From Candidatus Woesearchaeota archaeon (GTDB taxonomy: Archaea; Nanobdellota; Nanobdellia; Pacearchaeales; GW2011-AR1): a DNA stretch of 42,696 nt. Location of the stretch: assembly GCA_964624735.1 (NCBI GenBank), contig CAZUXN010000003.1, forward strand, positions 1 through 42,696. The letters run 5' to 3'. The position numbers and the translations under genes are program-made. Under the pieces are notes generated by a model. That model was not told the origin of the DNA, did no database searches, and saw only the letters and a list, made by a program, of their open reading frames with translations. Positions 6,290 through 41,245 of this stretch are shown one piece after another; the stretch's first letter is position 1; every line of letters begins with the position of its first letter.

Positions 6290-7117
6290 ATGTCTAAGAT
6301 AAAGTTTGGTCCGACGGGGATTGGGTCGGTTGGGGAGGCGGTTGCGAATTTGGAGATGTATGCTAAGTTAGGGTTTCGGGTGGCGGAGGTTTTGTTTACT
6401 TATGGGGTTTATATTAAAGAGAGGGAGGATGCTTTGAGGATTGGGCGGGTCGCGAAGAAGTTGGGGATTTATCTTTCTGTTCATGCGCCGTATTGGATTA
6501 ATTTGAATTCGAAGGACGAGAAGAAAGTTGAGATGTCGAAGAAGAGGATTTTGAAATGTTGCGAAGTCGCGTCGTGGCTTGGGGCGAAGCGAGTTGTTTT
6601 TCATCCTGGATACTATACTTCGATTTCTTCGAAGTTGAAGTCGCCTGTCGCTGGTCGCCTGTCGCTGGTCGCTGGAGAAAGTTATCAGAAAATTAAAGAG
6701 GGTATAGTTGAGATGATGGAGGTTATTAAGAAAGAGAAGTGGGATGTTGAGTTGTGTCCGGAGGTTATGGGGAAGGTGAATGTTTTTGGATCGATTGATG
6801 AGGTTGGTCGGTTGGTTCGCGAGACTGGGTGTTCTGCTTGTATTGATGTTGCTCATGTTTTGGCGAGGTATGGTTCTTATAAATTTTCTGAGATTGAGAA
6901 GGTGTTTAAGATGGAGAATTGGCATGTGCATTTTTCTGGGATTGAGTTTGGCGAGAAGGGTGAAAAGAAGCATTTGGTGACGCCTTTGTCTGAGTGGAAG
7001 AAGGTGTTGGGGTTTTTGAAGAAGTTGGATAAAGATGTTGTTTTGATTTGTGAAAGCCCCGACGCTGTTTCTGATAGCGTTGTTGGGATGAGAGTTTGGG
7101 ATGAGATGAATGCTTGA
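6290..7117 (+). CDS. nfo: endonuclease IV-like AP endonuclease (xylose-isomerase-like TIM barrel)
   Basis: HAPYWINLNS, RVVFHPGYY, CPEVMGK, CIDVAHV and WHVHFSGIEFGEKGEKKHLV follow the Endo IV metal-ligand block order. Carries an in-frame repeat insert. Confidence 0.7.
   Translation: MSKIKFGPTGIGSVGEAVANLEMYAKLGFRVAEVLFTYGVYIKEREDALRIGRVAKKLGIYLSVHAPYWINLNSKDEKKVEMSKKRILKCCEVASWLGAKRVVFHPGYYTSISSKLKSPVAGRLSLVAGESYQKIKEGIVEMMEVIKKEKWDVELCPEVMGKVNVFGSIDEVGRLVRETGCSACIDVAHVLARYGSYKFSEIEKVFKMENWHVHFSGIEFGEKGEKKHLVTPLSEWKKVLGFLKKLDKDVVLICESPDAVSDSVVGMRVWDEMNA
6617..6674 (+). repeat. hairpin ACTTCGA-N5-TCGAAGT (6617-6635) followed by a 5x 7-nt array GTCGCCT/GTCGCTG (6640-6674), in-frame in the nfo-like gene
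   Basis: Read directly from the sequence. It encodes ..TSISSKLKSPVAGRLSLVAGES.. directly after the conserved FHPGYY block. Confidence 0.9.
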
Positions 7118-7128
7118 GTATAACAATC

Positions 7129-7136
7129 TTTATATA
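7129..7136 (+). promoter_or_regulatory. TATA box TTTATATA
   Basis: Ends 23 nt before ATG 7159. Confidence 0.5.
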
Positions 7137-7158
7137 TAGATGTTGGACCTTTTTGTTT

Positions 7159-7713
7159 ATGATTGAAGCAGTAATTTTTGATGTTGGTGGGGTTTATATG
7201 GAAGGAAGTTTTATAGATTTTGTCAATAGGACTCGTAGGGCATTAGGGATTGATGGTATCTTTCATGCGGACAAAGAGGTGGTTTTCGATTCGGATTATA
7301 ATGCGGGATTGATTTCTGCAGAAGAATGTTTTAGGAAGTATTTTGGTGTTCCTATTTCTGATGAGCAGATGGAGGATCTTTTTGGTATATGGACGACTAC
7401 ATGGAAGCCGACGGATGAAATGTCTGATTTAGTTAAGAGATTAGGGATAAATAATAGACTGGCAATTCTTTCAAATTCTGATGCAGTTAATTCTGCAAAA
7501 TATACAGATATGGGATGGTACGATCCATTTGAGGTTTTAGTTTTGTCTCATGAGGAGGGGATAAATAAGCCTGATAAAAAAATTTATGAGATAGTTTTGG
7601 ACAGGTTGGGTCTGCCTGCTAAGAAATGTGTTTTTATTGATGATCAGATGGATGCATTGGTTTCTGCTAGGGAAATGGGTATGAAAACAATTTTGTATGA
7701 GAATGTTGTATAA
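7159..7713 (+). CDS. HAD-superfamily hydrolase (subfamily IA-like)
   Basis: Motif I variant AVIFDVGGVY, motif II ILSNS, motif IV FIDDQ. The start is placed at Met16 of the ORF (MIEAVIFD) on TATA spacing. Confidence 0.8.
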   Translation: MIEAVIFDVGGVYMEGSFIDFVNRTRRALGIDGIFHADKEVVFDSDYNAGLISAEECFRKYFGVPISDEQMEDLFGIWTTTWKPTDEMSDLVKRLGINNRLAILSNSDAVNSAKYTDMGWYDPFEVLVLSHEEGINKPDKKIYEIVLDRLGLPAKKCVFIDDQMDALVSAREMGMKTILYENVV

Positions 7714-39729: not shown

Positions 39730-39767
39730 TTGCATAATTTAATAAATGAGGGTTTCTTCGAGGGGAG

Positions 39768-39938
39768 ATGGTGGATGTTGAGTTTGTTGGGCAGTTGGTG
39801 GATTCTATGGAGGATGCTGTTATAAGGATGGAGAAATCTATAGAAAATAATAAGATTGATGAGGCGAATAAAATGAGGACATTTATTTTTGATTTGCATT
39901 GTCAGATTGCTAATGCGATGGGGGGGAAAGATGTTTAG
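39768..39938 (+). CDS. possible 56-aa helical protein between the ATPase and platform genes
   Basis: ATG preceded by GAGGGGAG. MVDVEFVGQLVDSMEDAVIRMEKSIENNKIDEANKMRTFIFDLHCQIANAMGGKDV. It is below the ORF-track cutoff and no family is recognised. Confidence 0.3.
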   Translation: MVDVEFVGQLVDSMEDAVIRMEKSIENNKIDEANKMRTFIFDLHCQIANAMGGKDV

Positions 39939-39988
39939 AGTCGGAGTTCTCACGGGAACTTCTCATAAATATTTTTCGGAGGCAAAAA

Positions 39989-41245
39989 ATGTTTGAGGTT
40001 TTTAAGAGAAATATTGAGCAAGAGAAAAAAATTGTTGATGATATGCGGTCGATTCAGGCGGCTATGGCTGATGATGTTAGATATAGGGGATTTTATCTTT
40101 CGAGTTTGAAATTGTTTGGTGAGCAATTGGTTTTGTTAAATAGGGCTGTGCCAGATTTATTGAAGGAATGGTCGCCTCTTCGGAAGTCGGAAGTCGGAAG
40201 TCGGAAGTCGGAAGGTGGAGGGGAGACGGTTAGTATAAGTTATGTTTCGCCGGCGACTAAGGAGAAGAGATATATTACTATTAATAAGAAGGATAAAAAG
40301 GAGTTCTTGGAAAAATTAAAAATGTCAGAGGGAGCATTGGTTGGGATTAAAAAATTGAAAGCAGAAGAGATTGGGGAAATTGTCCATAAGCCGAGTGCTT
40401 TTGTGAGGATGTCTAATACTTTTTTTAGAAAGTATTCGGAGAAATTTGTTCCTCGTTTTGGAAAGTTGGGTAAGAATTTAAAGAAAGGGAATATTCGTTT
40501 TTTGATATCAAGTTATTTGTCGATGGGGATAATGGCGTCGGCGATTGCATTTTTTGTGGGGCTTTTGATTTATGTTATGTTGTTGATTATTGATTTAGGC
40601 AATTGGACTTATTTTCCTTTGCCTTTTGGATTGATGGGTTTGGTGATGTTTTCGTTTTATTTTTATCCGTTGAGTGAAGCGAGTTCTATTCAGAAGAAAA
40701 TTTCACAGGAGTTACCTTTTGCGACGATTCATATGTCGGCGATTGCTGGTTCGGATATTGAACCAACGAAGATTTTTAAGATTATTGCGAGGTCGAAGGA
40801 GTATCCGAATATTGGGAAAGAAATTAGGAAGGTGATTACTCAGACGGATGTTTATGGTTATGATTTGGTGACGTCGTTGAAGAATGTTGCTATTCGAACT
40901 TCGAATAAGAAATTAGGAGAATTATTTTCTGGTATGGCGACGAATATTATGACGGGTGGGTCATTGAAAAATTATCTTGAAAAGAAGTCGGAGAATTTTT
41001 TGGTTGATTATAGATTGGAGCGTCAGAAGTATTCAGATTTGGCTGGGACTTTTATGGATGTTTATATTTCGATTTTGATTGCGGCGCCGTTGGTTTTGAT
41101 GATGATGTTTATTGTTATGAATGTTGCTGGGCTCGGGCTCGGGGTGTTAACAATTAATATGTTGTTGTTTTTGAGTGTTATTGGAATTGTTATAGTGAAT
41201 ATTGTTTTTATTGTGGTATTAAATTTGAAACAACCGAGCGTGTAG
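39989..41245 (+). CDS. type II secretion F-domain platform protein (TadC/FlaJ-like)
   Basis: Cytoplasmic N-terminal region, then a T2SSF-type block ELPFATIHMSAIAGS..YGYDLVTSLKNVA..GGSLKNYL flanked by TM helices. Confidence 0.8.
   Translation: MFEVFKRNIEQEKKIVDDMRSIQAAMADDVRYRGFYLSSLKLFGEQLVLLNRAVPDLLKEWSPLRKSEVGSRKSEGGGETVSISYVSPATKEKRYITINKKDKKEFLEKLKMSEGALVGIKKLKAEEIGEIVHKPSAFVRMSNTFFRKYSEKFVPRFGKLGKNLKKGNIRFLISSYLSMGIMASAIAFFVGLLIYVMLLIIDLGNWTYFPLPFGLMGLVMFSFYFYPLSEASSIQKKISQELPFATIHMSAIAGSDIEPTKIFKIIARSKEYPNIGKEIRKVITQTDVYGYDLVTSLKNVAIRTSNKKLGELFSGMATNIMTGGSLKNYLEKKSENFLVDYRLERQKYSDLAGTFMDVYISILIAAPLVLMMMFIVMNVAGLGLGVLTINMLLFLSVIGIVIVNIVFIVVLNLKQPSV
40171..40213 (+). repeat. GTCGCCT, CTTCGGAA, then 4x GTCGGAA (40186-40213) in the platform gene
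   Basis: Encodes SPLRKSEVGSRKSE. It is a 29-nt exact match to the argS array. Confidence 0.92.

Follow-up and report, generated by a model that had tools for sequence, protein, structure and literature searches.

Strand-polar tandem arrays behind DNA hairpins in conserved genes of a DPANN archaeon: possible scars of replication errors

Introduction

How can a conserved gene acquire, and keep, a tandem repeat whose unit length is not a multiple of three? The question is raised by a 42,696-nt stretch of DNA (contig CAZUXN010000003.1, here called the window) which, judged by its sequence, comes from a Woese-/Pacearchaeota-like DPANN archaeon. Short G/T-rich arrays, mostly of period 7, lie inside its genes for ABCE1, arginyl-tRNA synthetase (ArgRS), isoleucyl-tRNA synthetase (IleRS) and other conserved proteins, often directly behind a perfect DNA palindrome. 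A preliminary description, made from the letters alone, had ascribed these structures to a DNA-level event, the snapping back of a strand followed by slipped synthesis, and had named a miniature insertion element as the alternative. Here we show that hairpin and array follow each other in a fixed order on the G-rich strand regardless of gene orientation, and that the architecture is restricted to a single clade. We argue, with modest confidence, that the arrays are the marks left by errors of replication, in a strand-polar process specific to this lineage.

Results

Arrays of non-triplet period in intact genes

Arrays were called with Tandem Repeats Finder (TRF) and with our own scan for GC-containing tandem arrays. 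The window contained about 20 G/T-rich arrays, roughly 1 per 2 kb, most of them 27 to 36 nt long (GC-containing arrays at 6640-6675, 12845-12877, 15014-15040, 15376-15404, 16089-16120, 18137-18171, 18356-18387, 20376-20410, 20937-20966, 21785-21819, 23146-23173 [degenerate], 23637-23670, 23833-23887 [degenerate], 23997-24028, 24712-24741, 29051-29085, 29253-29308, 30703-30743, 35216-35250 and 40180-40214). As previously described, the unit was mostly a 7-mer and the arrays of KorB were built of 16-mers; some periods were 14. Long arrays occurred only at periods 7, 14 and 16. No array in the window had a period of 3, 6, 9 or 12, and 50 composition-preserving shuffles of the window yielded no long array. 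The modal length was 32 nt in genic and intergenic arrays alike, with a maximum of 35 nt for 7-mer arrays. Because there was no excess of short two-copy repeats of period 7, the arrays appear to arise at 4 to 5 copies. A search for a common motif such as CTTCGCT by k-mer enrichment gave a signal dominated by the arrays themselves and by codon usage.

Seventeen arrays lay inside intact open reading frames (ORFs) of conserved genes on both strands, and all 17 were in frame and free of stops, which bears out the claim that no array breaks its frame. The preliminary count had been 18; the case placed in a small membrane ORF could not be identified. Three arrays were intergenic (12845, 23997 and 35216), the number given before; their units contained stop triplets and lacked the GTCG core. 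Upon translation, the genic arrays would yield hydrophilic 7-residue repeats. Several arrays were decaying (23146, 23833 and 35216 in the window, and the array at IleRS site 3 of the relative L007). An AlphaFold model of ABCE1, itself poor (mean predicted local distance difference test score of 67), weakly suggests a loop placement of the inserts, since the score stays below 50 around sites 1 and 2 and dips at site 3.

Hairpins precede arrays on the G-rich strand

Perfect palindromes were present directly on the low-coordinate side of 12 arrays (6617, 14994, 15355, 16078, 18334, 20916, 21762, 23804, 24691, 29007, 29219 and 35188), where 11 had been reported. In a strict adjacency test (arm of ≥6 nt, loop of ≤6 nt, hairpin end −4 to +6 nt before the array), 8 of the 17 arrays passed, compared with 0.30 expected (binomial P = 2.2e-10), and the proposed association thus exceeded chance; one array had a hairpin on the opposite side. 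As single-stranded DNA, the hairpins had stabilities of −2.6 to −14.4 kcal/mol. The order of hairpin and then array on the + strand was constant both in + genes (nfo, ABCE1, ArgRS, TatD and T2SF) and in − genes (IleRS, Dph5, KorA and KorB), as had been stated before. Relative to the mRNA, the hairpin consequently lay 5' of the array in + genes and 3' of it in − genes. Since the order is fixed on the DNA strand and flips relative to the mRNA, an RNA- or protein-level cause is excluded, and the DNA-level nature of the process, as first proposed, stands.

For comparison, we used 80 ABCE1 loci from species-representative genomes plus five further loci around KorB. The same architecture was found in the closest relatives (L002/L205, L003, L004, L007, L012, L017, L051 and L202-L204), with the hairpin always 5' of the array on the G-rich strand. 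When hairpins with arms of ≥8 nt and arrays within 45 nt were counted in this array-bearing clade, 17 of 33 strong hairpins were followed by an array on their 3' side, as read on the G-rich strand, and no hairpin had one 5' of it, a polarity of 17 to 0 that was established at loci of one skew sign only. With the near-duplicates L002 and L205 taken once, 14 of 30 hairpins had a 3' array. In more distant relatives, including lineages of the same skew, none of 25 hairpins was accompanied by an array.

The sites of the window are as follows (coordinates, strand on which the feature is read, description).

6617..6675, +: nfo-like apurinic/apyrimidinic (AP) endonuclease (+ gene); hairpin ACTTCGA-tttct-TCGAAGT at 6617-6635, then a GTCGCCT/GTCGCTG array at 6640-6675, encoding KSPVAGRLSLVAG.
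12845..12877, +: intergenic, between the SMC start and a NUDIX gene; (TTAGGTA) x4.7 without hairpin; an orthologous array is present in L003.
14994..15040, +: ABCE1 site 1 (+ gene); hairpin CGTGCG-tgtg-CGCACG, then (GGTCGCC) x3.9, inside a lineage-variable insert of the Fe-S domain.
15355..15404, +: ABCE1 site 2 (+ gene); hairpin AAATTTTT-ttc-AAAAATTT, then (GCCAGTC) x4.1; net +7 aa versus orthologues.
16078..16120, +: ABCE1 site 3 (+ gene); hairpin GAACTT-g-AAGTTC (GELE codons), then (TCGCAAG) x4.6; net +7 aa; other arrays at the same position in L002, L004, L007 and L012.
18120..18171, +: ArgRS site 1 (+ gene); quasi-palindrome only, then (GTCGGAA) x5; net +4 aa.
18334..18387, +: ArgRS site 2 (+ gene); hairpin CTTCGCTTT-tgag-AAAGCGAAG, then (GGGTCGT) x4.6; net +1 aa; the hairpin is identical in L002 and L205, there with (GGGCCGT) x4.6, and L003 has a different perfect hairpin with (GGTTTCG) x3.9.
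20376..20410, +: IleRS site 1 (− gene); (TGGCTTG/TCGCTTG) x5 without hairpin; net length change 0; a degenerate counterpart is present in L006.
20916..20966, +: IleRS site 2 (− gene); hairpin ACAATCGGC-aaa-GCCGATTGT, then (GTTTTTG) x4.3; L007 has (GTCGGTT) at the same position.
21762..21819, +: IleRS site 3 (− gene); hairpin AAAGCAAAAAC-ttc-GTTTTTGCTTT, then (TTCGGTG) x4.7; net +11 aa; the native arm is made of the codons for VFAL of the YALAWTTTPWT motif.
23146..23173, +: Dph5 C-terminal site (− gene); degenerate array GCTGTTCGCTTGTCC; in L002 the array is long and perfect, (TTCGCTG)/(GTCGCTT), and in L007 it is of the GTTGTCG type.
23637..23670, +: Dph5 middle site (− gene); (GGTCGCA) x4.9 without perfect hairpin; net +7 aa.
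23804..23887, +: Dph5 N-terminal extension (− gene); hairpin TATCAAAAAAAGG-aaa-CCTTTTTTTGATA with 13-nt arms, then a degenerate array of the GTCGCTG type; in L002 and L205 the hairpin is AAAAAAAGG-ttg-CCTTTTTTT and the array is a perfect one of 14-mers.
23997..24028, +: intergenic, between Dph5 and TatD; (GTAGCTG/TTAGCTG) x4.6.
24691..24741, +: TatD (+ gene); hairpin TTCGGACGAA-gt-TTCGTCCGAA, then (AGGTGTC) x4.3; net +8 aa; loop, copied arm and array make up 42 nt (14 codons), past the SDE codons.
29007..29100, +: KorB internal site (− gene); palindrome with arms of 15 nt, AGATTTTTGCATGAC...GTCATGCAAAAATCT, around a loop of 14 nt, then the 16-mer array (AGTTCGCTTCGCTGTG) x2.2 and, beyond it, a small hairpin GTCGGC-ttt-GCCGAC; both arms are native codons (CHAKIF and DFCMT).
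29219..29308, +: KorB N-terminal extension (− gene); hairpin GTCAACTCC-gag-GGAGTTGAC, then 13 nt, then the 16-mer array (CTGTGAGACCTCTTCG) x3.5, whose unit is related to that of the internal site; the native arm is made of the codons for SELT of ELTWCPGC.
30703..30743, +: KorA (− gene); GTTAGCC/GTTGGCC array without hairpin; net +8 aa versus L203 and L204.
35188..35250, +: intergenic, 3' end of the signal recognition particle (SRP) RNA; hairpin ACTTGAAAATC-gga-GATTTTCAAGT, the same in L205, then, at 35216-35250, an array of a G-rich 13-mer.
40180..40214, +: T2SS-F-like pilus platform gene (+ gene); (TCGGAAG) x5.0 in perfect copies without hairpin; net −1 aa versus L205.

Overwriting, recurrence and concerted evolution

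Orthologues without an array also lacked the palindrome, in agreement with the earlier view of the arrays as insertions. Alignments revealed, however, that many arrays overwrite native loops. The net length change was 0 aa at IleRS 20376, −1 in T2SF, +1 and +4 in ArgRS, +7 at ABCE1 sites 2 and 3 and at the middle Dph5 site, +8 in TatD and KorA, and +11 at IleRS site 3. Several of them thus take the place of native loop sequence at a nearly unchanged length and cannot be called pure insertions. A rule by which the net insert is always 21 nt (three units) was rejected: it holds at ABCE1 sites 2 and 3 and the middle Dph5 site only, and fails in TatD, ArgRS, IleRS and T2SF. Permissive loops were hit again in many lineages with different sequences. 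Next to YALAWTTTPWT in IleRS, each of six lineages had a perfect palindrome of its own with a 3-nt loop and, behind it, an array of its own.

The arm distal to the array was usually conserved coding sequence, as expected from the proposed native arm with its inverted copy, and the right-hand arms of TatD, IleRS site 3, ArgRS site 2 and KorB (I-to-M) were perfect inverted copies. This description did not hold everywhere. The DFCxT and CHAKIF codons of KorB are reverse complements by nature, and an I-to-M change, found in the window only, extends the palindrome to 15 nt; ABCE1 of L002 and L012 likewise has two native arms, RAL pairing with ELE. Hairpins can therefore predate arrays, and a single event of snap-back plus slippage is not required. 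The direction of copying cannot be read from conservation, because selection would purge changes in the conserved arm. Arms remained perfect although native codons vary by lineage (IleRS YALAW site; ArgRS site 2 of the window and L002 versus L003), and the Dph5 N-terminal hairpin, the single candidate for an inverted spacer between arms, had the loop aaa in the window, whereas L205 had ttg and L206 ttt. In comparisons of this kind, the KorB I-to-M change, the arms kept perfect and the Dph5 loop differences may be taken as signs of template switching.

Orthologous arrays of ArgRS behind an identical hairpin differed at a single base of each copy (window, GGGTCGT x4.6; L002, GGGCCGT x4.6), which indicates that arrays evolve in concert. 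Since successive units are read in three frames, peptide selection cannot hold their nucleotide identity, and ongoing homogenization is needed. Genome-specific families of units, considered as evidence of a template in trans, were not supported (permutation P = 0.31); the apparent families track gene orientation.

The ArgRS gene of L002 is a mosaic compared with window 16941-18647: its N-terminal catalytic part is of another ArgRS type (…HKAFHIGHIRGTS…), and its C-terminal part, hairpin and array included, matches the window, which suggests recombination within the gene. In the IleRS gene of L003, the frame upstream of the YALAW-site array could not be aligned to orthologues (QLLQNNKGHNRRRK…); this may be due to a frameshift or to faulty assembly at the 16-mer array. 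Two 99.9% identical strains (L205 and L206) showed 17 differences in 16 kb and no indels; on short time scales, arrays are stable. Fourteen of these differences fell within 1.1 kb (positions 7167-8304) of the acetyl-CoA synthetase gene, which suggests a recombination tract, and one of the other three was located in the loop of the Dph5 N-terminal hairpin.

Strand composition and gene content

The + strand of the window contained 11794 G versus 4900 C and 16106 T versus 9896 A, and the GC skew was positive in all 2-kb bins. At four-fold degenerate sites, read on the + strand, the GC skew was +0.73 in + genes and +0.75 in − genes, and the AT skew was −0.56 and −0.74, respectively; G outnumbered C by ∼6.5:1. 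Because these skews are alike in genes of both orientations, the mutation bias tracks the DNA strand and not transcription. The extreme asymmetry, of a level comparable to that of animal mitochondrial DNA, was common to the window and L002-L007, L017, L022, L023 and L202-L206, whereas more distant relatives had a weaker skew that tracked gene orientation.

The named relatives closest by ABCE1 homologue were metagenome-assembled genomes (MAGs) labeled "Pacearchaeota," "Woesearchaeota" and "Nanoarchaeota." The gene set of the window is ordinary, with an ABC transporter, the nfo-like endonuclease, SMC, RNase HII, ABCE1, ArgRS, IleRS, a Dph5-type methylase, TatD, a 2-oxoacid:ferredoxin oxidoreductase (OFOR), acetyl-CoA synthetase, SRP RNA and type IV pilus genes. 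Pfam identified the array hosts as AP_endonuc_2, ABCE1, ArgRS, IleRS, Dph5-type methylase, TatD, OFOR beta and alpha, and T2SS-F; a PDB search with the nfo-like protein gave no match. No transposase, HUH nuclease, integrase or reverse transcriptase was detected by Pfam across the 42.7-kb window.

Three further features were noted. At 14034-14149 (+) lies a probable intron-containing tRNA-Met(CAT), in which the acceptor AGCGGGG pairs with CCCCGCT; its T-arm is GGTTCAAATCC, ∼40 nt follow beyond the anticodon loop, and neither ARAGORN nor Rfam made a call. The archaeal SRP RNA (34932-35191, +) scored 84.8 bits against an Rfam gathering threshold of 96.5, with ∼40 model positions missing, and its 3' end is the start of a hairpin with 11-nt arms. 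Two small pilin-like genes are separated by a perfect tandem repeat of a 51-nt unit (36870-36977, 2.1 copies, 100% identity), which differs in kind from the 7-mer arrays.

Other repeat families

Within TatD of the window, 24866-24900 form a separate in-frame palindromic insert, CCCGGTTAGATAGCGAGCATCAAACGGGACAAGG (peptide SRLDSEHQTGQG), homologous to CCCCGGTTAGATAGTCTTGGACATCAAACGGGGCAGGG in ABCE1 of L004 and L012 (peptide QLDSLGHQTGQG). It is a truly mobile insert, an analogue of the Rickettsia palindromic elements. The palindrome-encoded peptide AARGIPSxEGTxVPSSSGK occurred at several ABCE1 sites in P0006, P0009, P0013, P0022, P0050, P0064 and L021 and at the ArgRS N terminus of L009; its DNA contains CCCTCTATAGAGGG and GGCACCAAGGTGCC, and it constitutes a second family of such in-frame inserts. 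A/C-rich arrays of period 10 (ACACGGACAA, CACGAATGAA) without hairpin were present in L003 (11222-11249 and 11664-11690) and in ABCE1 of P0009, P0010, P0012 and P0017, where they encode NSTRTNTDxHG-like peptides at several sites; in composition, their polarity runs counter to that of the 7-mers.

A metagenome scan for GTCGNNN x4 listed matches in unrelated, mostly high-GC bacterial contigs, which are useless for a test of polarity. Among these listed matches, arrays of ∼4 GTCGNNN units occurred as inverted pairs around 40 to 60 nt of intergenic DNA, e.g., (GTCGTTN)4 ... (NAACGAC)4, in L089, L090, L108, L109, L128, L133, L135, L147, L174 and L190. This looks like a distinct repeat family.

Discussion

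Replication errors at hairpins as the favored origin

We consider it somewhat probable that a strand-polar process of replication error, specific to the lineage, left the arrays as its scars; the link to replication, the strand copied and the enzymology are what we infer. The G/T-rich strand, whose composition bears a signature of exposure as a single strand, would be single-stranded for long periods, and stable hairpins would form there, either from codon-level quasi-palindromes or from palindromes made or perfected by short-range template switching (quasi-palindrome correction). Synthesis would stall at the 3' base of the hairpin in coordinates of the G-rich strand, and a patch of ∼30 to 35 nt would be re-synthesized by reiterated slipped copying with a step of 7 nt, sometimes 14 or 16, replacing or extending native sequence. 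Selection would purge products that shift the frame, introduce stops or damage the protein, so that survivors would be seen in permissive loops of essential genes and in intergenic DNA. Continued slippage or conversion would keep copies identical and arms complementary, with only length changes in multiples of 3 nt tolerated in coding sequence. Either a polymerase on the G-rich template would meet the hairpin from its 3' side and slip there, or the nascent G-rich strand would fold back, copy its own arm and re-align badly; the observed polarity is compatible with both alike.

Net changes of 0, −1 and +1 aa match the prediction of a jump-and-return template switch, and the occurrence of GTCG-type units in genes versus TTAGGTA or GTAGCTG in intergenic DNA fits a selection filter. 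Each ingredient has a precedent in the literature. Quasi-palindrome template switching in Escherichia coli is strand biased (PMC7202029). FEN1-deficient (rad27) yeast accumulates simple-repeat insertions together with quasi-palindrome correction, palindrome elongation and later amplification (PMC5677150), and template switching is reported to create perfect hairpins and to maintain them (PMC8794818).

A variant of this reading, which we hold to be improbable, is that the arrays are fossil priming or re-priming tracts, made by an archaeal primase-polymerase restarting just beyond a hairpin that blocks synthesis on the exposed single strand. The ∼32-nt tract would then stem from a reiterated unit-length product of ∼7 nt, left unremoved in this clade. 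If so, restart sites could be read from the genome as from a strand-polar map, the clade would amount to a natural mutant that is affected in removing primers or in processing Okazaki fragments, and the extreme GC skew would be a second symptom of this mode of replication.

Several observations speak against an origin in replication errors. About half of the arrays lack a perfect hairpin, and arrays are nearly absent from sister lineages that share the skew and have hairpins; L005, L022 and L023 are array-free sisters of the same skew. Ordinary slippage predicts neither the 7-nt step nor the absence of periods in multiples of three, the modal 32 nt and the missing two-copy intermediates. No source of the unit sequences, direct or inverted, was found above chance within 120 nt of either flank. 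Copy-number polymorphism, which the preliminary description had suggested as a check, was absent: arrays did not differ in copy number between 99.9% identical strains (16 kb) or between two assemblies (10.7 kb). The direction of replication is read from skew only; no skew-sign change occurred among the examined loci of the array-bearing clade. Finally, the 16-mer family AGTTCGCTTCGCTGTG is common to both KorB sites, to genomes L202-L205 and to IleRS of L003, and in L203 ∼95 nt of array plus small hairpin are nearly identical at both KorB sites, behind two different hairpins. These two findings point to sequence transfer and not to local errors alone.

Alternative explanations

Alternatively, a non-autonomous copy-paste cassette, or ectopic templated synthesis, would target the 3' side of hairpins on an exposed strand, and the arrays, imported from other arrays and not made on the spot, would then evolve in concert. 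We rate this as unlikely. In its favor are the shared 16-mer family and the nearly identical ∼95 nt of L203. Hairpin- or single-strand-directed, replication-polar insertion has precedents in IS200/IS605 elements, integron attC sites and class C group II introns; arrays occur at full length with no two-copy class and no local source for their units, and mobile in-frame palindromic inserts do exist in the same genomes (TatD 24866-24900 and its ABCE1 counterparts). On the other hand, the 20 window arrays consist of many different units, which resemble each other within a genome no more than between genomes in the permutation test above. The adjoining hairpins are of local, often conserved coding sequence and share no common element sequence, neither conserved termini nor target duplications are present, the window encodes none of the enzymes sought by Pfam, and likeness between arrays 200 nt apart in one gene is explicable by gene conversion. 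The miniature insertion element of the preliminary description is thereby weakened, since the units are not copies of one conserved element, but keeps some weight, given the 16-mer family and the mobile inserts. Selection for function is doubtful: hairpin and array might serve as polar chromosomal signals (in priming, fork pausing, segregation or strand discrimination) or encode adaptive disordered peptides. Strict polarity on the G-rich strand is a property of other replication-oriented motifs, and perfect arms and copies at orthologous sites across genomes with proteins ∼79% identical, the regular length of ∼32 nt and the density could all reflect selection. Yet units and arms offer no common sequence for recognition by a protein, many arrays are decaying, close lineages of the same skew do without them, and selection on peptides cannot hold unit identity across three reading frames.

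Two further explanations carry very little weight. Removal or skipping of the segments at the level of RNA or translation, as mini-introns or by programmed translational bypass, is suggested by GC-richer islands with a hairpin in AT-rich coding sequence and by a superficial likeness to bypass elements known from yeast mitochondria and from gene 60 of phage T4, and is highly improbable. All 17 arrays in coding sequence are in frame and stop-free, which would be unnecessary if they were skipped; the side of the hairpin flips with gene orientation, leaving no constant RNA architecture; and Rfam had no match at the array sites. Artifacts of amplification, sequencing or assembly, such as chimeric fold-back products, which are a known artifact of whole-genome amplification, might be suspected, all the more as one Logan contig ends inside an array. 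This explanation is effectively refuted, and we give it hardly any credence. Window arrays were identical, without indels, over 10.7 kb in an independent Logan assembly, those of a relative were identical in two European Nucleotide Archive (ENA) assemblies, and homologous structures stood at orthologous sites in MAGs of unrelated studies; since the structures recur in independent assemblies, an assembly artifact is ruled out. All arrays, moreover, keep the reading frame.

Comparison with known systems

The window arrays behave like products of template switching plus slippage, in an architecture that we did not find described. A literature search for a polar hairpin plus ∼32-nt array of 7-nt units, dense and in essential genes, found no description, and a heptanucleotide query returned mostly unrelated papers. 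Template switching as in the Ripley model, known from E. coli and yeast reporters and from evolutionary events, likewise replaces native bases by an inverted copy of adjacent sequence. In these events, imperfect palindromes are perfected, arms are maintained despite drift, and strand bias relative to replication is seen (PMC7202029, PMC8794818 and PMC8604942). Such events, in contrast, have no adjoining tandem array of fixed period and are not reported as dense, polar and genome-wide in essential genes. The repeat insertions, duplications, quasi-palindrome correction, palindrome elongation and amplification of rad27 yeast, ascribed to stalled synthesis at hairpin flaps (PMC5677150), are similar, but arise in a laboratory mutator with mixed unit sizes, and show no 7-nt period, no fixed order of hairpin and array and no fixed products in essential genes. 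Tandem repeats of Borgs share with the window arrays perfect copies, fast and lineage-specific evolution, locations in ORFs and between genes, compositional bias, disordered segments and an unresolved origin (PMC9879509). Unlike the window periods of 7, 14 and 16, none of which is divisible by three, unit lengths of Borg ORF repeats all are; Borg repeats also have no adjoining hairpin, vary in copy number within populations and lie mostly in non-essential genes (PMC9879509).

Rickettsia palindromic elements and inserts like MITEs (miniature inverted-repeat transposable elements) likewise consist of short palindromic DNA tolerated in frame in conserved genes. Their copies share a consensus, whereas the window hairpins are local coding sequence and the units diverse; for lack of a shared consensus, the window units are not members of these groups. 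Exceptions to this lack are the KorB/IleRS 16-mer family and the separate, true element in TatD. Contingency loci, too, can have units that are not a multiple of three inside reading frames, but they change copy number frequently, switch genes and reside in surface or variable hosts. Because the hosts here are essential (IleRS, ArgRS, ABCE1), every array keeps the frame and near-identical strains showed no polymorphism, the window arrays are not contingency loci. Nor did they show the copy-number continuum and the length polymorphism between strains that mark replication-slippage microsatellites, or the untranslatable insert and constant RNA architecture of bypass elements and mini-introns. 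The short tandemly repeated repetitive (STRR) sequences of heterocystous cyanobacteria consist of tandem 7-nt units in many copies per genome, and their function is unknown; they comprise few fixed sequences, are mostly intergenic, and have no reported hairpin partner or strand polarity.

Implications

For phylogeny, the inserts inflate the apparent divergence of DPANN markers (ABCE1, IleRS and ArgRS), and arrays break assemblies, as in the Logan contig mentioned above. If the arrays are indeed replication scars, they could serve as a marker of the strand, for orienting contigs and for finding origins in genomes of this group. They would also be a source of new disordered protein segments from units that are not multiples of three, unlike Borg repeats. 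Replication errors at hairpins would have added new, translated stretches of peptide to the genes that a cell conserves most, hitting the same permissive loops again and again with a fixed polarity, and the arrays would constitute a natural record of how the replisome of an uncultivated archaeon handles secondary structure.

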